Of a stretch of DNA of 32,448 bases, positions 1,146-27,448 are shown piece after piece; the first letter of the stretch is position 1, and each line of letters opens with the position of its first letter. The notes under the pieces are model-generated. The model searched no databases, had not been told where the DNA came from, and was given only the letters and a program-made list of their open reading frames with translations. The position numbers and the translations under genes are program-made. This DNA comes from Escherichia phage HZP2. The stretch is from the sequence record NC_048164.1; one strand, 5' to 3'.

Positions 1146-1586
1146 ATGAGTCTATTCAATAAGTTGTTACCTTGGGTTCTAGCTGGGATGCTATTCGGAT
1201 GGGGATGGCACCTTGGGGCAGACTCAATGGACGCCAAGTGGAAACAGGAGGTACAGAATGAGTACGTTAAGAGAGTTGAGGCTACAGCGAGCACTCAAAG
1301 AGCACTCAATGAAATATCGGCTAAGTATCAAGAAGACCTTGCCGCGTTGGAAGGGAGCACTGATAGGATTATTTCTGATTTGCGTAGCGACAATAAGCGG
1401 CTGCTCGTCAGAGTCAAAACTACCGGAACCTCCGATGGTAAGTGTAGATTCGAGCCTGATGGTCGAGCCGAACTTGACGACCGAGATGCTAAACGTATTA
1501 TCGCAGTGACCCAGAAGGGTGACGCGTGGATTCGTGCGTTACAGGATACTATTCGTGAACTACAACGTAAGCAGGAAACCGAGTAA
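1146..1586 (+). CDS. 18.5: Rz-like i-spanin (T7 gp18.5 homolog)
   Basis: MSLFNKLLPWVLAGMLFGWGWHLGADSMDAKWKQEV... matches T7 gp18.5; start chosen at the ATG at 1146 with GGAGG RBS rather than the ORF-track GTG at 1083. Confidence 0.9.
   Translation: MSLFNKLLPWVLAGMLFGWGWHLGADSMDAKWKQEVQNEYVKRVEATASTQRALNEISAKYQEDLAALEGSTDRIISDLRSDNKRLLVRVKTTGTSDGKCRFEPDGRAELDDRDAKRIIAVTQKGDAWIRALQDTIRELQRKQETE
1258..1509 (+). CDS. 18.7: Rz1-like o-spanin lipoprotein (T7 gp18.7 homolog), embedded out of frame in 18.5
   Basis: MSTLRELRLQRALKEHSMKYRLSIKKTLPRWKGALIGLFLICVATISGCSSESKLPEPP... with lipobox (ISGC) and Pro-rich tail; embedded position typical of Rz1. Confidence 0.85.
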   Translation: MSTLRELRLQRALKEHSMKYRLSIKKTLPRWKGALIGLFLICVATISGCSSESKLPEPPMVSVDSSLMVEPNLTTEMLNVLSQ

Positions 1587-1595
1587 GGAGGTAAT

Positions 1596-3356
1596 GTGTC
1601 TACTCAGTCCAATCGTAATGCGCTCGTTGTGGCGCAACTAAAGGGTGACTTCGTGGCGTTCCTGTTCGTCTTATGGAAGGCGTTAAACCTACCAGTGCCA
1701 ACTAAGTGTCAAATCGACATGGCTAAGGTGCTGGCGAATGGAGACAACAAGAAGTTCATCCTACAGGCTTTCCGTGGTATCGGTAAGTCATTCATCACAT
1801 GTGCGTTCGTTGTGTGGTCCTTATGGAGGGACCCTCAGTTGAAGATACTTATCGTATCAGCTTCTAAAGAACGTGCAGACGCTAACTCCATATTCATCAA
1901 GAACATCATTGACCTGCTGCCGTTTCTCAGTGAGTTGAAGCCGAGACCCGGACAGCGTGACTCTGTGATTAGTTTTGATGTTGGCCCCGCTAGTCCTGAC
2001 CACTCGCCTAGTGTGAAATCAGTAGGTATCACTGGTCAGTTAACAGGTAGTCGTGCTGATATTATCATTGCGGATGACGTTGAGATTCCGTCTAACAGTG
2101 CTACTATGGGTGCCCGTGAGAAGCTATGGACTCTCGTTCAGGAGTTCGCTGCGTTACTTAAACCACTACCTACGTCTCGTGTTATCTACCTTGGTACCCC
2201 TCAGACTGAGATGACTCTCTATAAGGAACTTGAGGATAACCGTGGGTACACAACCATTATCTGGCCTGCTCTGTATCCAAGGACACACGAAGAGAACCTC
2301 TATTACTCACAGCGTCTTGCTCCTATGCTACGTGCTGAGTACGATGAGAACCCTGAGGCACTCGCTGGGACTCCTACAGACCCTGTTCGGTTCGACCGAG
2401 ACGACCTGCGTGAGCGTGAGTTGGAATACGGTAAGGCTGGCTTTACGCTACAGTTCATGCTTAACCCGAACCTGAGTGACGCTGAGAAGTACCCTCTGAG
2501 GCTCCGTGACGCTATCGTAGCGGTCTTAGACTTAGAGAAGGCACCGATGCATTACCAGTGGCTTCCGAACCGTCAGAACATCATTGAGGACCTTCCTAAC
2601 GTGGGCCTTAAGGGTGACGACCTACATACATACCATGAGTGCTCGAATAACTCTGGTCAGTATCAACAGAAGATTCTGGTCATTGACCCAAGTGGTCGTG
2701 GTAAGGACGAAACAGGTTACGCTGTGCTGTACACCCTCAACGGTTACATCTACCTAATGGAAGCTGGTGGTTTCCGTGACGGTTACTCCGATAAGACCCT
2801 TGAGTTGCTCGCTAAGAAAGCCAAGCAATGGGGAGTCCAGACGGTTGTCTACGAGAGTAACTTCGGTGATGGTATGTTTGGTAAGGTATTCAGTCCTATC
2901 CTTCTTAAACACCACAACTGCGCGATGGAGGAGATTCGTGCTCGTGGTATGAAGGAGATTCGTATTTGTGATACCCTTGAGCCAGTCATGCAGACTCACC
3001 GCCTTATCATTCGCGATGAGGTCATTAGGGCCGACTACCAGTCAGCTCGTGACGTAGACGGTAAACATGACGTTAAGTATTCACTATTCTACCAGATGAC
3101 CCGTATCACCCGTGAGAAAGGTGCTCTGGCTCATGATGACCGATTGGATGCCCTTGCGTTAGGCGTTGAGTATCTCCGTGAGTCCATGCAGTTGGATTCC
3201 GTTAAGGTCGAAGGTGAAGTGCTTGCTGACTTCCTTGAGGAACACATGATGCGTCCTACAGTTTCTGCTACCCACATCATTGAGATGTCTGTAGGAGGAG
3301 TTGATGTGTACTCTGAGGACGATGAGGGATACGGTACGTCTTTCATTGAGTGGTGA
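1596..3356 (+). CDS. 19: terminase large subunit / DNA maturase B (T7 gp19 homolog)
   Basis: 586 aa, near-identical to T7 gp19 ([24 protein letters not shown]...TSFIEW). GTG start at 1596 directly after GGAGG; T7 gene 19 also appears to start with GTG. Confidence 0.95.
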
Positions 3357-3393: not shown

Positions 3394-3837
3394 ATGATAA
3401 GCAAGAAGAAGTATGTTATCGATAAGGAGACTGGTTGCTGGAACTTTAGGGGATGTAAGACGAAGACTGGTTATGGTCGCATTCGTGTGAACGGAGTCCA
3501 TTGGATGGCCCACAGGTATTCCCTGAGTTGTCATCTAGGCAGACCGATAGCTGACGGAATGGTTGTGATGCACCTATGTGATAATCCTTCATGTGTTAAC
3601 CCTGAGCACCTTAAGGAAGGGACTCAGAAGGAGAACATAGAGGACTGCATCTCAAAAGGTCGTGCAACTAAGTCCACAGGTAAACGTGATGCAACTAAGA
3701 GAGACCCTAGCGAGGAACGTAAGGCTATAGTGATTCGAAGATACCATAAAGGCTGGACCGCAACGTCCATAGCGAGATACCATAAGCTCTCTGTGGCGTG
3801 GGTAAAGAGGGTCATTGAGGATTACCTAAGTGATTGA
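3394..3837 (+). CDS. free-standing HNH homing endonuclease (HNH motif plus C-terminal helix-turn-helix)
   Basis: 147 aa; GCWNF..GYGRIRVNG..HR....VVMHLCDNPSCVNPEHL is an HNH_3-type motif, same architecture as T7 gp7.7/gp5.3. Strong RBS TAAGGAGGT 7 nt upstream. T7 has no gene at this position. Confidence 0.85.
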   Translation: MISKKKYVIDKETGCWNFRGCKTKTGYGRIRVNGVHWMAHRYSLSCHLGRPIADGMVVMHLCDNPSCVNPEHLKEGTQKENIEDCISKGRATKSTGKRDATKRDPSEERKAIVIRRYHKGWTATSIARYHKLSVAWVKRVIEDYLSD

Positions 3838-3888: not shown

Positions 3889-3911
3889 TAATTCGACTCA
3901 CTATAGGGAGA
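3889..3911 (+). promoter_or_regulatory. T7 RNAP promoter (phiOR-like, right-end replication promoter)
   Basis: TAATTCGACTCACTATAGGGAGA, 21/23 match to the T7 class III consensus; positioned upstream of gene 19.5 as phiOR is in T7. Confidence 0.8.
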
Positions 3912-4002
3912 AGCCTACCTAAAGATTACTATAAGACTTAAAGTTACCTATAAGGTAGGTTGTTATTATTGTTAATACAACCAACATAAAGGGAGGAGAC
4001 TC

Positions 4003-4152
4003 ATGTTCCGCTTATTGTTGAACCTACTGCGGCATAGAGTCACCTATCGCTTTCTTGTGGTACTTTGTGCTGCCCTTGGGTACGCATCGCTTAATGGAGA
4101 CCTCAGTTCACTGGAGTCTGCCGTTTGCTCTTTACTCACTTGTAGTGATTAA
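4003..4152 (+). CDS. 19.5: gp19.5 homolog (small protein of unknown function)
   Basis: 49 aa MFRLLLNLLRHRVTYRFLVVLCAALGYASLNGDLSSLESAVCSLLTCSD, near-identical to T7 gp19.5; GGGAGGAG RBS. Not in the ORF track because it is under 60 aa. Confidence 0.85.
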   Translation: MFRLLLNLLRHRVTYRFLVVLCAALGYASLNGDLSSLESAVCSLLTCSD

Positions 4153-4392
4153 GGTCTTCCTGACCGACTGACGGCTCACCGAGGGATTCAGCGGTATGAT
4201 TGCATCACACCACTTCATCCCTATAGAGTCAAGTCCTAAGGTATACCCATAAAGAGCCTCTAATGGTCTATCCGTAAGGTCTATACCTAAAGATAGGCCA
4301 TCCTATCAGTGATGCCTAAAGAGTCGCTTAGAGAGGGCCTAAGGAGTCCCTAGAGGGTCCTTTAAAATATACCATAAAAATCTGAGTGACTA

Positions 4393-4562
4393 TCTCACAG
4401 TGTAAGCGCCCAAGGTTCCCCCCATAGGGGTCCCCAAAGTCACTCCTTTGGAGTGCCGGACCTTGAGGTGGACTTAAAGTGGGTCTTGAGGTGGACCGAA
4501 GGAGGGTCCTAGTGATACCTTGGGGAGTGTCTCCTTGTCCCTATCTGTTCAGCCTCTTAAAG
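4393..4562. repeat. genome terminal repeat (single copy, as in a concatemer junction or circularised assembly)
   Basis: Begins TCTCACAGTGTA.. like the T7 terminal repeat and ends near ..CCCTATCTGTTCAGCCTCTTAAAG; flanked upstream by CCTAAAG/CCTAAGG-type motifs and downstream by the left-end repeats and phiOL. Boundaries are inferred by T7 analogy and cannot be fixed from one copy. Confidence 0.6.
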
Positions 4563-4644
4563 TCACCTCCTAACGTCTATCCTAAGTCAACACCAACAGA
4601 ATAACCATAAAGGCCCCTCAAGTCAATACCCCATCTTAAAGATA

Positions 4645-4692
4645 ATCCTAACGACCATCCTAACGACCATCCTAACGACCATCCTAACGACC
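4645..4692. repeat. tandem direct repeat, 4 perfect copies of 12-bp unit ATCCTAACGACC (plus a degenerate fifth)
   Basis: Directly visible: ATCCTAACGACC x4 at 4645-4692 followed by ATCCTGATGATG; lies in the left-end non-coding region where T7 has an array of short CCTAAAG-containing repeats. Confidence 0.95.
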
Positions 4693-4747
4693 ATCCTGAT
4701 GATGCCTTGTCGTTACTTATAAAGAGATGACCAATAATCATTGTCTT

Positions 4748-4770
4748 TAATTCGACTCACTATAGGGAGA
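4748..4770 (+). promoter_or_regulatory. T7 RNAP promoter (phiOL-like, left-end)
   Basis: TAATTCGACTCACTATAGGGAGA, identical 23-mer to the phiOR-like promoter at 3889-3911; located just upstream of the host-promoter array like T7 phiOL. Confidence 0.8.
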
Positions 4771-6779: not shown

Positions 6780-9431
6780 ATGAGCACGATTAACATCGCT
6801 AAGAACGATTTCTCTGACATCGAACTAGCCGCTATCCCGTTCAATACTCTGGCTGACCACTACGGTGAGCGTCTAGCTCGCGAGCAGTTGGCCCTTGAGC
6901 ATGAGTCTTACGAAATGGGTGAAGCACGTTTCCGCAAGATGTTTGAGCGTCAACTCAAGGCCGGTGAGGTTGCAGACAACGCTGCCGCTAAGCCTCTTAT
7001 TACTACCCTGCTCCCCAAGATGATTGCACGCATCAACGATTGGTTTGAGGAAGTGAAAGCTAAGCGTGGCAAACGTCCAACCGCTTTCCAGTTCCTGCAG
7101 GGAATCAAGCCGGAATCTGTAGCGTATATCACCATTAAGACTACTCTTGCTTGCCTAACGAGCGTGGACAATACAACCGTTCAGGCTGTAGCAAGCGCCA
7201 TCGGACGGGCTATCGAGGAAGAAGCTCGCTTCGGTAGAATCCGTGACCTAGAAGCTAAGCACTTCAAGAAAAACGTTGAGGAACAACTAAACAAGCGCGT
7301 AGGGCACGTCTATAAGAAGGCATTCATGCAGGTAGTCGAGGCTGATATGCTCTCTAAGGGTCTACTAGGTGGCGAGGCGTGGTCTTCATGGCACAAGGAA
7401 GACTCCATTCACGTAGGTGTGCGCTGCATTGAGATGCTCATTGAGTCCACCGGAATGGTTAGCCTGCACCGCCAAAATGCTGGCGTAGTGGGCCAAGACT
7501 CTGAGACTATCGAGCTGGCACACGAATACGCTGAGGCTATCGCAACCCGCGCTGGGGCACTGGCTGGCATCTCTCCGATGTATCAGCCTTGCATAGTCCC
7601 TCCTAAGCCTTGGACTGGTGTAACTGGTGGTGGCTACTGGGCCAACGGTCGCCGCCCTCTGGTACTGGTACGCACTCACAGCAAGAAGGCACTGATGCGC
7701 TACGAAGATGTTTACATGCCTGAGGTATACAAGGCGATCAACATTGCGCAAAACACCGCATGGAAAATCAACAAGAAAGTCCTAGCAGTCGCCAACGTGA
7801 TAACCAAGTGGAAGCACTGCCCAGTCGAGGACATCCCTTCGATTGAGCGTGAAGAACTCCCGATGAAACCGGAAGACATCGACACGAATCCTGAGGCTCT
7901 CACCGCTTGGAAACGTGCTGCCGCTGCTGTGTACCGTAAAGACAAGGCACGCAAGTCTCGCCGCATCAGCCTTGAGTTCATGCTTGAGCAAGCCAATAAG
8001 TTTGCGAACCGTAAGGCCATCTGGTTCCCTTACAACATGGACTGGCGTGGCCGTGTGTACGCTGTGTCAATGTTTAATCCGCAAGGTAACGACATGACCA
8101 AAGGTCTGCTGACACTGGCTAAAGGTAAACCAATCGGCAAGGAAGGATTTTACTGGCTGAAAATCCACGGGGCCAACTGCGCGGGGGTCGATAAGGTTCC
8201 ATTCCCTGAGCGCATCAAGTTCATTGAGGACAACCACGATAATATCATGGCGTGCGCTAAGTCTCCACTTGAAAACACTTGGTGGGCTGAGCAAGATTCT
8301 CCGTTCTGCTTCCTCGCGTTCTGCTTTGAGTACGCTGGGGTACAGCACCACGGATTGAGCTACAACTGCTCGCTGCCGCTGGCGTTCGATGGGTCTTGCT
8401 CTGGCATCCAGCACTTCTCCGCAATGCTCCGCGACGAGGTAGGTGGTCGTGCTGTTAACCTACTGCCTAGCGAAACCGTTCAGGACATCTACGGGATTGT
8501 TGCCAAGAAAGTCAACGAGATTCTGCAAGAGGATGCAATCAACGGGACCGATAACGAAGTGATTACCGTGACCGATGAGAACACGGGCGAAATCTCTGAG
8601 AAAATCAAGCTGGGTACTAAAGCACTGGCTGGTCAATGGTTGGCCTACGGTGTGACCCGTAGCGTCACTAAACGTTCAGTCATGACGCTGGCCTATGGTT
8701 CCAAAGAGTTCGGCTTCCGTCAGCAAGTTCTGGAGGATACCATACAGCCAGCTATTGATTCAGGCAAAGGTCTGATGTTCACCCAACCCAATCAGGCCGC
8801 TGGGTACATGGCTAAGCTGATTTGGGAATCTGTGAGCGTTACCGTAGTGGCTGCTGTAGAGGCCATGAACTGGCTCAAGTCTGCCGCTAAGTTGTTGGCT
8901 GCTGAGGTCAAAGATAAGAAGACTGGTGAGATTCTTCGCAAGCGTTGCGCGGTGTATTGGGTAACTCCTGATGGCTTCCCTGTGTGGCAGGAATACAAGA
9001 AGCCTATTCAGACTCGCTTGAACCTGATGTTCCTCGGTCAGTTCCGCTTACAGCCAACCATTAACACTAACAAGGATAGTGAGATTGATGCACACAAACA
9101 GGAGTCCGGTATTGCCCCTAACTTTGTACACAGCCAAGACGGTAGCCACCTGCGTAAGACTGTAGTGTGGGCACATGAGAAGTACGGAATCGAATCGTTT
9201 GCATTGATTCACGACTCCTTCGGGACCATTCCGGCTGACGCTGCCAACCTATTCAAGGCTGTTCGTGAGACTATGGTTGACACCTACGAGTCCTGCGATG
9301 TACTTGCAGACTTCTACAACCAGTTCGCTGACCAGTTACATGAGTCTCAACTTGATAAAATGCCAGCACTTCCGGCTAAAGGTAGCTTGAATTTACGAGA
9401 CATCTTAGAGTCAGACTTCGCGTTTGCGTAA
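6780..9431 (+). CDS. 1: single-subunit DNA-directed RNA polymerase (T7 gp1 homolog)
   Basis: 883 aa, near-identical to T7 RNAP over its whole length (MSTINIAKNDFSDIELAAIPFNTLADHYGERLAREQLALEHESYEMGEARF ... HDSFGT ... DFAFA). Confidence 0.98.
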   Translation: MSTINIAKNDFSDIELAAIPFNTLADHYGERLAREQLALEHESYEMGEARFRKMFERQLKAGEVADNAAAKPLITTLLPKMIARINDWFEEVKAKRGKRPTAFQFLQGIKPESVAYITIKTTLACLTSVDNTTVQAVASAIGRAIEEEARFGRIRDLEAKHFKKNVEEQLNKRVGHVYKKAFMQVVEADMLSKGLLGGEAWSSWHKEDSIHVGVRCIEMLIESTGMVSLHRQNAGVVGQDSETIELAHEYAEAIATRAGALAGISPMYQPCIVPPKPWTGVTGGGYWANGRRPLVLVRTHSKKALMRYEDVYMPEVYKAINIAQNTAWKINKKVLAVANVITKWKHCPVEDIPSIEREELPMKPEDIDTNPEALTAWKRAAAAVYRKDKARKSRRISLEFMLEQANKFANRKAIWFPYNMDWRGRVYAVSMFNPQGNDMTKGLLTLAKGKPIGKEGFYWLKIHGANCAGVDKVPFPERIKFIEDNHDNIMACAKSPLENTWWAEQDSPFCFLAFCFEYAGVQHHGLSYNCSLPLAFDGSCSGIQHFSAMLRDEVGGRAVNLLPSETVQDIYGIVAKKVNEILQEDAINGTDNEVITVTDENTGEISEKIKLGTKALAGQWLAYGVTRSVTKRSVMTLAYGSKEFGFRQQVLEDTIQPAIDSGKGLMFTQPNQAAGYMAKLIWESVSVTVVAAVEAMNWLKSAAKLLAAEVKDKKTGEILRKRCAVYWVTPDGFPVWQEYKKPIQTRLNLMFLGQFRLQPTINTNKDSEIDAHKQESGIAPNFVHSQDGSHLRKTVVWAHEKYGIESFALIHDSFGTIPADAANLFKAVRETMVDTYESCDVLADFYNQFADQLHESQLDKMPALPAKGSLNLRDILESDFAFA

Positions 9432-12232: not shown

Positions 12233-12934
12233 ATGGCTAAGAAGATTTTCACCTCTGCGCTGGGTACTGCTGAGCCTTACGCATACATCGCTAAGCCGGA
12301 CTACGGTAACGAAGAGCGTGGCTTTGGGAACCCTCGTGGTATCTTTAAAGTTGACCTGACCATTCCCAACAAAGACCCGCGTTGTCAACGCATGGTCGAT
12401 GAAATCGTGAAGTGCCACGAAGAGGCTTATGCTGCTGCCGTTGAGGAATATGAGGCCAACCCGCCGGTAGTAGCTCGTGGTAAGAAGAAACCTATTGAAC
12501 CTTATGAGGGAGACATGCCGTTCATTGATAATGGTGACGGTACGACTACCTTTAAGTTCAAGTGCTACGCTTCCTTCCAAGACAAGAAGACCAAAGAGAC
12601 CAAGCACATCAATCTGGTTGTGGTTGACTCCAAAGGTAAGAAGATGGAAGACGTGCCGATCATTGGTGGCGGCTCTAAGCTGAAAGTCAAGTATTCGCTG
12701 GTCCCGTACAAGTGGAACAACGCTGTAGGTGCGAGCGTTAAGCTGCAATTGGAATCCGTTATGTTGGTCGAACTGGCTACCTTTGGTGGCGGTGAAGACG
12801 ATTGGGCTGACGAAGTTGAAGAGAACGGCTATGTTGCCTCTGGTTCTGCCAAAGCGAGCAAACCACGCGACGAAGAAAGCTGGGACGAAGACGACAGTGA
12901 GTCCTACGAAGAAGACGAAGACGGAGACTTCTAA
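12233..12934 (+). CDS. 2.5: single-stranded DNA-binding protein (T7 gp2.5 homolog)
   Basis: 233 aa MAKKIFTSALGTAEPYAYIAKPDYGNEERGFGNPRG... with acidic C-terminal tail ..EDEDGDF characteristic of gp2.5. Confidence 0.95.
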   Translation: MAKKIFTSALGTAEPYAYIAKPDYGNEERGFGNPRGIFKVDLTIPNKDPRCQRMVDEIVKCHEEAYAAAVEEYEANPPVVARGKKKPIEPYEGDMPFIDNGDGTTTFKFKCYASFQDKKTKETKHINLVVVDSKGKKMEDVPIIGGGSKLKVKYSLVPYKWNNAVGASVKLQLESVMLVELATFGGGEDDWADEVEENGYVASGSAKASKPRDEESWDEDDSESYEEDEDGDF

Positions 12935-13905: not shown

Positions 13906-16066
<2,161 letters not shown>

Positions 16067-17113: not shown

Positions 17114-19072
17114 ATGATCGTTTCTGACATCGAAGCTAACGCCCTCTTAGAGAGCGTCACTAAGTTCCACTGCGGGGTTATCTACGACTACTCCACCGCT
17201 GAGTACGTAAGCTACCGTCCGAGTGACTTCGGTGCGTATCTGGATGCGCTGGAAGCCGAGGTTGCACGAGGCGGTCTTATTGTGTTCCACAACGGTCACA
17301 AGTATGACGTTCCAGCATTGACCAAACTGGCTAAGTTACAGCTTAACCGTGAGTTCCACCTACCCCGTGAGAACTGTATTGACACACTTGTGTTGTCACG
17401 CTTGATTCACTCAAACCTGAAAGACACCGATATGGGTCTTCTGCGTTCCGGTAAACTTCCGGGTAAACGCTTTGGGTCTCACGCTTTGGAGGCGTGGGGC
17501 TATCGCTTAGGTGAAATGAAGGGTGAATACAAAGATGACTTTAAGCGTATGCTTGAAGAACAAGGTGAAGAATACGTTGACGGCATGGAGTGGTGGAACT
17601 TCAACGAAGAGATGATGGCCTATAACGTTCAGGACGTTGTGGTCACTAAGGCTCTCCTTGAGAAGCTACTCTCTGACAAACATTACTTCCCTCCTGAGAT
17701 TGACTTTACGGACGTAGGCTACTCTACGTTCTGGTCAGAATCCCTTGAGGCCGTTGATGTTGAACATCGTGCTGCGTGGCTACTCGCTAAGCAAGAGCGA
17801 AATGGATTCCCATTTGACACGAAAGCAATCGAAGAGTTGTACGTAGAGTTGGCTGCCCGCCGCTCTGAGTTGCTCCGCAAATTGACCGAAACGTTCGGCT
17901 CGTGGTATCAGCCTAAGGGTGGCACAGAAATGTTCTGCCATCCGAGGACTGGTAAGCCATTACCTAAATATCCTCGCATTAAGACACCTAAAGTTGGTGG
18001 TATCTTTAAGAAGCCTAAGAACAAGGCACAGCGAGAGGGCCGTGAGCCTTGTGAACTGGATACCCGTGAATACGTTGCTGGTGCTCCATATACTCCTGTA
18101 GAGCACGTAGTGTTTAACCCTTCGTCCCGTGACCACATTCAGAAGAAACTTCAAGAGGCTGGATGGGTCCCCACGAAGTACACCGATAAGGGTGCGCCTG
18201 TGGTGGACGATGAGGTACTCGAAGGAGTACGTGTAGATGACCCTGAGAAGCAAGCCGCTATCGACCTTATTAAAGAATACCTGATGATTCAGAAGAGAAT
18301 CGGTCAGTCTGCTGAGGGAGACAAGGCATGGCTTCGTTACGTTGCTGAGGATGGTAAAATTCATGGTTCTGTTAACCCTAATGGAGCAGTTACGGGTCGT
18401 GCTACCCATGCGTTCCCAAACCTTGCGCAAATTCCGGGTGTACGTTCTCCTTATGGTGAGCAGTGCCGCGCTGCTTTTGGCGCTGAACATCACTTAGATG
18501 GACTTACAGGTAAGCCTTGGGTTCAGGCTGGTATAGACGCCTCCGGTCTGGAGTTACGTTGCTTGGCCCACTTTATGGCTCGCTTTGATAACGGTGAGTA
18601 CGCTCACGAGATTCTTAATGGTGACATTCACACTAAGAATCAGATAGCTGCCGAATTGCCTACCCGTGATAACGCCAAGACGTTCATCTATGGGTTCCTT
18701 TATGGTGCTGGTGATGAGAAGATTGGGCAGATTGTTGGTGCTGGCAAAGAACGCGGTAAGGAACTCAAGAAGAAATTCCTTGAGAACACTCCAGCGATTG
18801 CTGCACTCCGAGAGTCTATCCAACAGACACTCGTTGAGTCATCTCAGTGGGTAGCTGGTGAACAGCAAGTCAAGTGGAAACGCCGCTGGATTAAAGGACT
18901 TGATGGGCGCAAAGTCCATGTCCGTAGTCCTCATGCTGCCCTGAACACCTTGCTGCAATCTGCTGGTGCTCTTATCTGCAAACTGTGGATTATCAAGACC
19001 GAAGAGATGCTCTTAGAGAAAGGCTTGAAGCATGGCTGGGATGGGGACTTTGCGTACATGGCATGGGTGCAT
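17114..19072 (+). CDS. 5: DNA polymerase (T7 gp5 homolog), exon 1 (residues 1-653)
   Basis: [36 protein letters not shown]... near-identical to T7 gp5 up to ..[13 protein letters not shown]. The frame then runs into non-homologous KLSHCAH-stop, while the missing 51 C-terminal residues of gp5 are encoded at 19674-19829. Confidence 0.95.
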
Positions 19073-24571: not shown

Positions 24572-25495
24572 ATGGCTGAATCTAATGCTGATGTATACGC
24601 GTCCTTTGGCGTAAACTCCGCTGTGATGTCTGGTGGTTCCGTTGAGGAACACGAGCAGAATATGCTGGCTCTGGATGTTGCTGCCCGTGATGGCGATGAT
24701 GCAATCGAGTTAGCGTCTGACGAAGTGGAAACTGAGCGTGACCTGTATGACAACTCTGACCCATTCGGTCAAGAGGACGATGAGGGACGCATTCAGGTTC
24801 GCATTGGTGATGGTTCTGAGCCGACTGATGTGGACACTGGGGAAGAAGGTTTTGATGGCACAGAAGGTTCCGAAGAGTTTACTCCGCTTGGTGAAACTCC
24901 AGAAGAACTGGTAGCCGCCTCTGAGCAACTTGGTGAGCACGAAGAGGGCTTCCAAGAGATGATTAACATTGCTGCCGAGCGCGGTATGAGTGCTGAGACC
25001 ATTGAGGCAATCCAGCGCGAGTACGAGGAGAACGAAGAGTTATCCGATGCGTCATACGCTAAGCTGGCTGAAATTGGCTACACTAAGGCTTTCATCGACT
25101 CGTACATTCGCGGTCAAGAAGCTCTGGTGGAGCAGTACGTCAACAGTATCGTTGAGTACGCTGGTGGTCGTGAACGTTTTGACGCACTGTATAATCACCT
25201 TGAGACTCACAACCCTGAGGCTGCACAATCGCTGGACAACGCGTTGACGAATCGCGACTTAGCGACCGTTAAGGCCATCATCAACTTGGCTGGTGAGTCT
25301 CGTGCTAAGGCGTTCGGTCGTAAGCCAACTCGTAGTGTAACCAGTCGAGCTATTCCGGCTAAACCTCAAGCTACTAAGCGTGAAGGGTTTGCTGACCGTA
25401 GCGAGATGATTAAGGCTATGAGTGACCCTCGGTATCGCACTGATGCAAACTATCGCCGTCAAGTCGAACAGAAAGTGATCGACTCGAACTTCTGA
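24572..25495 (+). CDS. 9: capsid assembly / scaffolding protein (T7 gp9 homolog)
   Basis: 307 aa MAESNADVYASFGVNSAVMSGGSVEEHEQNMLALDVAARDGDDAIELASDEVETERDLYDNSDPFGQEDDEG..., acidic, matches T7 gp9. Confidence 0.95.
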   Translation: MAESNADVYASFGVNSAVMSGGSVEEHEQNMLALDVAARDGDDAIELASDEVETERDLYDNSDPFGQEDDEGRIQVRIGDGSEPTDVDTGEEGFDGTEGSEEFTPLGETPEELVAASEQLGEHEEGFQEMINIAAERGMSAETIEAIQREYEENEELSDASYAKLAEIGYTKAFIDSYIRGQEALVEQYVNSIVEYAGGRERFDALYNHLETHNPEAAQSLDNALTNRDLATVKAIINLAGESRAKAFGRKPTRSVTSRAIPAKPQATKREGFADRSEMIKAMSDPRYRTDANYRRQVEQKVIDSNF

Positions 25496-26857: not shown

Positions 26858-27448
26858 ATGCGCTCATACGATATGAACGTTGAGACTGCCGCTGAGTTAT
26901 CCGCTGTGAATGACATTCTGGCATCTATCGGTGAACCTCCGGTATCGACGCTTGAGGGTGACTCAAACGCAGACGTAGCGAACGCTCGACGTATTCTCAA
27001 CAAGATTAACAGACAGATTCAGTCGCGTGGCTGGACGTTCAACATTGAGGAAGGTATTACTCTTCTTCCTGACGTTTACTCCAACCTGATTGTATACAGC
27101 GACGACTACCTATCACTAATGGCTACCTCTGGTCAGTCAGTCTATGTCAACCGTGGTGGTTATGTATATGACCGAACGAGTCAATCGGACCGCTTTGAGT
27201 CTGGCATCACTGTTAACATTATCCGTCTACGAGACTACGACGAGATGCCTGAGTGCTTCCGCTACTGGATTGTCACTAAGGCTTCCCGTCAGTTCAACAA
27301 CCGATTCTTTGGGGCACCAGAAGTAGAGGGTGTACTTCAAGAAGAGGAAGACGAGGCTCGACGTCTCTGTATGGAGTACGAAGTAGACTATGGTGGCTTC
27401 AATATGCTGGACGGTGACGCATTCACTTCTGGCCTACTGACTCGCTAA
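26858..27448 (+). CDS. 11: tail tubular protein A / gatekeeper (T7 gp11 homolog)
   Basis: 196 aa [66 protein letters not shown]..., matches T7 gp11. Confidence 0.97.

Follow-up and report, generated by a model that had tools for sequence, protein, structure and literature searches.

The small open reading frames (ORFs) 19.2 and 19.3 of phage T7 lie within gene 19, and the 1983 T7 sequence paper of Dunn and Studier reportedly listed them as possible genes on the criteria of an ORF and a ribosome-binding site. In T7 (NC_001604), gene 19 occupies 37370..39130, 19.2 occupies 38016..38273 (offsets 646-903 within gene 19) and 19.3 occupies 38553..38726 (offsets 1183-1356). The two ORFs are annotated in T7, 13a and phiA1122, and among the GenBank phage records of 20 relatives only that of 13a annotates them. 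Published descriptions vary: a table for phage SH5 gives a '19.2' of 56 aa and a '19.3' of 42 aa, matched to the 77-aa 19.2 and the 42-aa 19.3 of phiYeO3-12, and another published table matches a 41-aa ORF to the 55-aa gp19.2 of K1F. The differing lengths and starts are consistent with annotators calling whichever ORF is open at the locus. In the openly searchable full-text literature, no expression, ribosome-profiling or proteomic data on 19.2 or 19.3 were found, and what that literature otherwise offers are similarity-based annotation tables and statements of the 'hypothetical' kind. The matter is one of annotation hygiene, as both ORFs are listed in records as 'hypothetical proteins', gave rise to two Pfam DUFs and two PHROGs, and are now and then proposed as lysis factors.

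A comparable arrangement is that of 18.7 within 18.5 (Rz1/Rz type), a proven same-strand overlap in which a late gene likewise encloses a small +1-frame ORF completely, on the same transcript. The PHROG family of 18.7 is annotated as an Rz-like spanin (lysis), whereas the families of 19.2 and 19.3 are not. This pair served as a positive control. Its coordinates in the window, by which is meant the whole stretch of DNA analysed here (32,448 nucleotides of Escherichia phage HZP2, NC_048164.1), are:

1146..1586: 18.5, i-spanin (PHROG 1327)
1258..1509: 18.7, o-spanin (PHROG 4306), nested in 18.5 in the +1 frame

The window is a genome segment of a T7-like phage (Teseptimavirus-type) and contains counterparts of both 19.2 and 19.3. 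In all likelihood these ORFs arise as by-products of coding for the terminase and are not protein-coding genes kept by selection; they are known, historically annotated ORFs that very probably are not functional genes.

Counterparts of 19.2 and 19.3 in the window

The host gene of both ORFs is the orthologue of T7 gene 19, to which it is 93.1% identical in nucleotides and 98.5% in amino acids; identity to many other Teseptimavirus terminase genes is 93-96% at the nucleotide level. Its product matches Pfam Terminase_6N at aa 60-204 and Pfam Terminase-T7_RNaseH-like at aa 363-470 (9.9e-40). T7-type promoters gave no matches within gene 19 (the closest lies at 3889), and sigma-70-like and terminator-like matches in the gene are at or below shuffle expectation. 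The features of the locus are:

1596..3356, + strand: terminase large subunit gene (T7 gene 19 orthologue), 586 aa, GTG start, containing both small ORFs entirely
2230..2475, + strand: +1-frame ORF, counterpart of T7 19.2, 81 aa from TTG 2230, nested in gene 19
2232..2244, + strand: Shine-Dalgarno sequence and start of 19.2, consisting of GAGGA (2232-2236), 5 nt and GTG (2242-2244), the same as in T7
2242..2475, + strand: T7-equivalent portion of the 19.2 ORF, 77 aa, GTG start
2766..2781, + strand: site of the T7 19.3 ribosome-binding site and start, reading GGTGG (2766-2770) and ACG (2779-2781)
2767..2952, + strand: +1-frame ORF, counterpart of T7 19.3, 61 aa from GTG 2767, with a T7-equivalent span of 2779..2952

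A sequence-only reading had reported two ORFs in an alternative + frame of gene 19, at 2230-2475 (81 aa) and 2767-2952 (61 aa), and had placed them at roughly the T7 19.2 and 19.3 offsets. Both are present as it described them, and the T7 coordinates, the alignment and the family matches bear out the placement. Within gene 19 the 19.2 counterpart spans offsets 634-879 and the 19.3 counterpart offsets 1171-1356. The T7-equivalent start of 19.2 is GTG 2242 (offset 646, corresponding to T7 38016) and not TTG 2230. The 19.2 ORF matches PF17571 (DUF5477) over its full length (1-77/77) with 137.3 bits (cut-off 25; E=1.9e-40) and PHROG 8982 with 4e-39, and the 19.3 ORF matches PF17554 (DUF5466) with 107.9 bits (cut-off 25; E=2.9e-31) and PHROG 8173 with 3.6e-25. 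Functions are assigned to none of these families, which would seem to exist only through propagation of the 1983 ORF calls. The window ORFs thus correspond to T7 19.2 and 19.3 in both position and sequence, and are already catalogued.

Alignment with T7 brings out both likenesses and differences. The 19.2 ORF shares with T7 19.2 (NP_042011) the host gene, the +1 frame, the position of the GTG and the upstream GAGGA, and 64 of the 77 aligned residues are identical. However, it stops eight codons sooner, at 2473 (stop codon 2473-2475, offset 877-879), where T7 reads on to 2497, and 13/77 alternative-frame residues are changed as against 1/77 in the terminase over the same span. The terminase codons GAG GAT AAC CGT GGG (E-D-N-R-G) supply the GAGGA and GTG, and to judge from its letters the GAGGA-N5-GTG is a plausible initiation site that is intact in the window. 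The 19.3 ORF has its frame and stop (2950-2952, offset 1354-1356, corresponding to T7 38724-38726) in common with T7 19.3 (NP_042012), and 47 of the 57 aligned residues are identical; the remaining 10/57 alternative-frame residues are changed, whereas the terminase has no change over the same span. The start signals of 19.3 also differ. T7 has GGAGG, 7 nt and an ATG at offset 1183 that spans GAT and the next G. In the window the Shine-Dalgarno sequence is weakened to GGTGG, and the terminase-synonymous change of GAT to GAC has turned the ATG into ACG, so that the canonical start is gone. The 61-aa ORF opens only from an upstream GTG, at 2767 or 2776, in a poor ribosome-binding context.

Synonymous change in the terminase gene

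Both small ORFs are in the terminase +1 frame, with each alternative codon made up of positions 2 and 3 of a terminase codon and position 1 of the next. Any change at a terminase third position therefore alters position 2 of an alternative codon, and hence the alternative-frame amino acid. Synonymous change was followed in 80 terminase loci (IMG/VR) and 20 further T7-group genes (GenBank phage records), which gave a nearly gapless codon alignment. Changes were counted by Fitch parsimony on NJ trees, and the expectation, matched for amino acid, was taken from the remaining codons of the gene (bootstrap 95% CI).

No drop in terminase synonymous change over 19.2 or 19.3 was detected, either in 99 genes or in the 32 T7-group genes. 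Over 19.2, the observed/expected ratio is 1.55 in the T7 group (285 changes vs 184 expected; 95% CI 1.21-1.96) and 1.40 in the 99 genes (CI 1.21-1.62). Over 19.3, it is 0.94 in the T7 group, with a CI (0.59-1.39) that is compatible with a slight fall of ~20-40% in the synonymous rate, and 0.97 in the 99 genes (CI 0.78-1.23); across the gene sets tried it ranges from 0.94 to 1.06. Tree-free pairwise synonymous diversity over 19.2 is 1.52 times expectation, in line with the parsimony counts. The corresponding value for 19.3 is 0.78 times expectation (32 genes, P=0.065), which is well inside the normal scatter of the gene (0.29-1.97 per 25-codon window).

The control behaves differently. It was limited to 15 alignable taxa because 18.5 is too diverged beyond the T7 group (8-14% identity, automatic extraction). 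In these taxa the 18.5 codons overlapped by 18.7 have a synonymous observed/expected ratio of 0.26 (38 vs 146.5, P<0.0003) and the 18.5 codons that are not overlapped one of 0.90; on the same 15 taxa the ratio is 1.30 for 19.2 and 1.01 for 19.3. The mean pairwise identities in the 15 taxa are:

18.7: alternative frame 0.88, host gene 0.88
19.2: alternative frame 0.67, terminase 0.95
19.3: alternative frame 0.79, terminase 0.96

The 18.7 ORF thus combines a strong synonymous footprint with alternative-frame identity at the level of its host, and 19.2 and 19.3 have neither. The alternative-frame identity of 19.2 stays at 0.67-0.73 across gene sets, and in the T7 group 94% of equal-length +1-frame windows in the gene are more conserved than 19.2. 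The sequence-only reading had looked to the terminase synonymous sites for a decision, and no excess constraint is found there, the ratios being 1.40-1.55 for 19.2 and 0.94-0.97 for 19.3, against 0.26 for the 18.7 control.

The ratios above one over 19.2 call for an account of their own. If 19.2 were translated and evolving fast as an overlapping gene, whether because of its youth or through diversifying selection, its turnover would lift the terminase synonymous rate. The rate over 2242-2472 does significantly exceed the average of the gene (T7 group 1.55, Klebsiella-phage clade 1.56, overall 1.40), and the T3-like clade, in which the frame is broken at 2257, has a smaller excess (1.21, not significant). 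However, the raised stretch (~2226-2430) has the same limits whether the ORF of a clade ends at 2473 or 2608, and the excess therefore tracks a region of the terminase and not the ORF. That stretch also has slightly more nonsynonymous terminase change (139 vs 122 expected; 15 vs 9.4 in the T7 group), which points to a less constrained or recombination-prone segment between the Pfam matches at aa 60-204 and aa 363-470. In addition, the final third of the ORF (2436-2472) falls in a low-diversity segment, and the frame gives no independent sign of expression. A diversifying 19.2 gene is accordingly considered very improbable.

Starts, stops and open frames among relatives

The decay of starts, frames and signals within the T7 group was surveyed in 32 unique genes. 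The 19.2 GTG is kept in all 32, the GAGGA is weakened to GAAGA in eight, and the frame is uninterrupted over 2242-2472 in 31. Thirty of these genes have the 19.2 stop at 2473; in T7 and Salmonella phage C2 it lies at 2497. In ESh1, a stop at 2257 closes the frame five codons past the start (codon 6). For 19.3, the ATG is present in 30/32 genes and reads ACG in the window and in IME390/PHB20, while the GGAGG has become GGTGG in about 10/32. Premature 19.3 stops occur at 2905 in 13a and EG1, cutting the frame to 42 aa, and at 2923 in locus L013; locus L005 lacks the 2950 stop.

Beyond the T7 group, breaks in the 19.2 frame occur in loci L014 (at 2407), L020 (at 2317 and 2335), L021 and L079, and in all T3-like genes, where a stop lies at 2257 and AAC AAA GGG occupies the site of the T7-group 19.2 GTG. 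A stop at 2800 cuts the 19.3 frame of the T3-like genes, and one at 2905 that of most of the remaining genes outside the T7 group. In the Klebsiella-phage clade the 19.2 frame is open as far as 2608, and with a synonymous ratio of 1.56 there this openness is not due to constraint. Unlike functional same-strand overlapping phage genes, then, 19.2 and 19.3 do not keep frame and start intact across related clades.

Within the T7 group, the 19.2 frame has gained fewer stops than a neutral model predicts (1 vs 5.7 expected, P=0.02), and the gene as a whole matches that model (53 observed vs 56.5 expected). Alternative codons one terminase-synonymous step away from a +1 stop are available in both ORFs, at 2362, 2422 and 2461 in 19.2 and at 2809 and 2905 in 19.3. 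The deficit was rejected as a sign of selection, as open stretches that carry no annotation have an equal or stronger one: 2536-2734 has no stop gains vs 4.9 expected (P=0.007), and 2044-2209 has three vs 6.3 expected. The deficit arises because the stretches were picked for being open in present-day sequences, i.e. from ascertainment.

These observations bear on the suggestion of the sequence-only reading that preservation of the ORFs in a diverged relative is weak evidence that they are real. The suggestion finds no support, given that synonymous constraint is lacking and the T7 start of 19.3 is lost here. Nor is the phage very diverged from T7 (93% nt and 98.5% aa identity in the terminase), and with so small a divergence preservation of the ORFs carries little weight. 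The apparent conservation in T7 relatives results from a terminase that is ~98% identical across the group and from the recent co-descent of the genomes. The caveat entered at the same time, that overlapping frames are constrained by the terminase sequence anyway, turns out to be the whole explanation.

It is unlikely that 19.2 and 19.3 are true overlapping small genes in the T7 group, with products (accessory proteins of lysis or of the membrane, for instance) made from ribosome-binding sites inside the late gene 19 mRNA. Their annotation in three phages, the existence of Pfam and PHROG families and the presence of GTG, GAGGA and an open 19.2 frame in most T7-group genomes speak for such genes, as does the nature of the peptides, which are basic and moderately hydrophobic (pI 9.9-11.9, GRAVY 0.33-0.35). 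A 'potential lysis function' has also been stated, although speculatively (PMC8365609, citing Nguyen and Kang 2014). Against this, the synonymous ratios of 0.94-1.55 are far from the 0.26 of the true overlapping gene 18.7, and the alternative-frame peptides diverge much faster than the terminase. Viable natural knock-outs exist, namely ESh1 for 19.2 and, for 19.3, the truncated frames of 13a, EG1 and L013 and the missing ATG of the window and IME390/PHB20; those in ESh1, 13a, EG1 and IME390 already hint that loss is without effect. Both frames are also interrupted in other Studiervirinae clades. The peptide composition, rich in Leu, Ser, Thr, Arg and Val and of high pI, in our judgement resembles that of out-of-frame translation. 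Were the ORFs true genes, a model phage would gain two more overlapping genes, but the evidence points the opposite way. The result indicates ORFs without protein-level selection, which should be neither propagated as genes nor used as candidates unless expression data exist.

The stop-poor +1 frame of the terminase gene

The by-product reading would account for the ORFs through the composition of the gene itself. The codon usage of the phage leaves the +1 frame naturally poor in stops: a stop arises there only where T at position 2 and A or G at position 3 of one terminase codon meet A or G at the start of the next. The terminase gene contains 21 stops in the +1 frame vs 74 in the +2 frame, and NTA codons, which are needed for TAA or TAG in the +1 frame, are scarce (26/586). 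In a frame so poor in stops, ORFs of 60-80 codons arise readily. Start-like signals such as GAGGA-N5-GTG are likewise written by terminase codons (E-D-N-R-G). We infer that no functional protein is made from the 19.2 and 19.3 frames. Some adventitious translation at a low level may start at the 19.2 GAGGA-GTG, but would be under no detectable selection.

Ribosomes that undergo a programmed frameshift in the terminase gene might also land in the open +1 stretches, which would give truncated isoforms with an altered C terminus, much as with T7 10A/10B. Programmed frameshifting is known in T7-like phages from another gene (10B), and long +1 open stretches extend from 2044 to 2950. However, a trans-frame product would constrain synonymous sites at and past the shift, which is not seen, and conserved stops at 2212, 2497-2533 and 2755 break the open stretches. 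Moreover, the known T7 frameshifts are -1 and would enter the stop-rich frame with its 74 stops. This possibility can be given hardly any weight.

In 5000 permutations of synonymous codons within the terminase gene, which preserve both the protein and the codon usage, the longest +1 ORF reaches at least 81 aa in 22.9% of shuffles, and two or more +1 ORFs of at least 61 aa are present in 23.7%. Two small ORFs in the terminase gene are no more than chance yields, and are unremarkable. Similarly, the 20.9 kb of long ORFs across the window contain ten nested same-strand ORFs of at least 60 aa, all ten in the +1 frame, a density at which ~0.84 would be expected in a gene of 1.76 kb. Antisense nested ORFs of at least 60 aa number 32 across the window, and include one of 81 aa within the terminase gene (2754..2999).

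Synonymous constraint in the spanin overlap and along the terminase gene

The spanin overlap served as the positive control for the synonymous-constraint analysis of the terminase large-subunit gene, gene 19 (1596-3356), in which two +1-frame ORFs occupy the positions of T7 19.2 and 19.3.

Spanin genes
1146-1586, + strand: 18.5, i-spanin (PHROG 1327)
1258-1509, + strand: 18.7, o-spanin (PHROG 4306), overlapping 18.5 in its +1 frame

Synonymous suppression is very strong within the overlap, with a ratio of observed to amino-acid-matched expected changes of 0.26 versus 0.90 outside it, and 18.5/18.7 is a genuine overlapping spanin pair. Along gene 19, synonymous variability is uneven. It reaches 1.2-2.0 times the gene average at 2226-2430 (T7-like clade, Klebsiella-phage clade and the pooled set), while among the 32 genes of the T7 group it is only 0.29-0.57 at 2436-2585 and 0.42 at 2451-2585 (P<0.001). 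This pattern, which does not track the ORF boundaries, may reflect mosaicism through recombination, or constraint that varies from one region to another.

Nested ORFs in the +1 frame

Throughout the window, every ORF of 60 aa or more that is nested within a long + strand ORF on the same strand lies in the +1 frame (10/10). These ten include 18.7 and the two in gene 19 (2230-2475 and 2767-2952).

Remaining seven nested +1-frame ORFs, all on the + strand
7915-8097
12477-12683
14982-15221
17919-18101
18666-18854
24990-25247
27144-27326

Compared with synonymous shuffles, the +2 frame of gene 19 has an excess of stops (74 versus 54.7 +/- 4.5 predicted) and the +1 frame a slight deficit (21 versus 26.5 +/- 2.8). 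Further claims of hidden +1-frame genes within the window require equal caution.

Neighbouring genes and the genome-end junction

Other features
194-598, + strand: 134-aa ORF with a match to a family of tail fiber assembly proteins (PHROG 136, 4.2e-07)
3394-3837, + strand: HNH homing-endonuclease-like gene, 147 aa (PHROG 6254, 3.1e-60; Pfam HNH_3 and HTH_23)
4462-4508: 23-mer tandem repeat, two copies, junction region
4645-4697: tandem repeat ATCCTAACGACC, 4.4 copies, junction region

The 134-aa ORF lies directly upstream of the holin gene (608-811), whereas T7 has no gene between 17 and 17.5; the tail-fibre module thus differs between the two phages. The HNH-like gene, probably a mobile insertion, is flanked by the terminase gene and a phiOR-type T7 promoter (3889). 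T7 lacks a gene here, whereas phage 13a has a gene annotated as gp19.4 in the corresponding position. A 444-nt 'hypothetical protein' occupies it in several relatives: AH67C600_Q5, CQ615, JB01, ESh6, PHB20, pO111 and CICC 80001.

At 3889-4770 the window passes from the right end of a genome of T7 type, with genes 17.5-19 and the phiOR-like promoter, into the left end, with a phiOL-like promoter at 4748 and an RNA polymerase-size ORF at 6780-9431. The window therefore includes the junction between the two genome ends, as expected of an assembly that is permuted or concatemeric.
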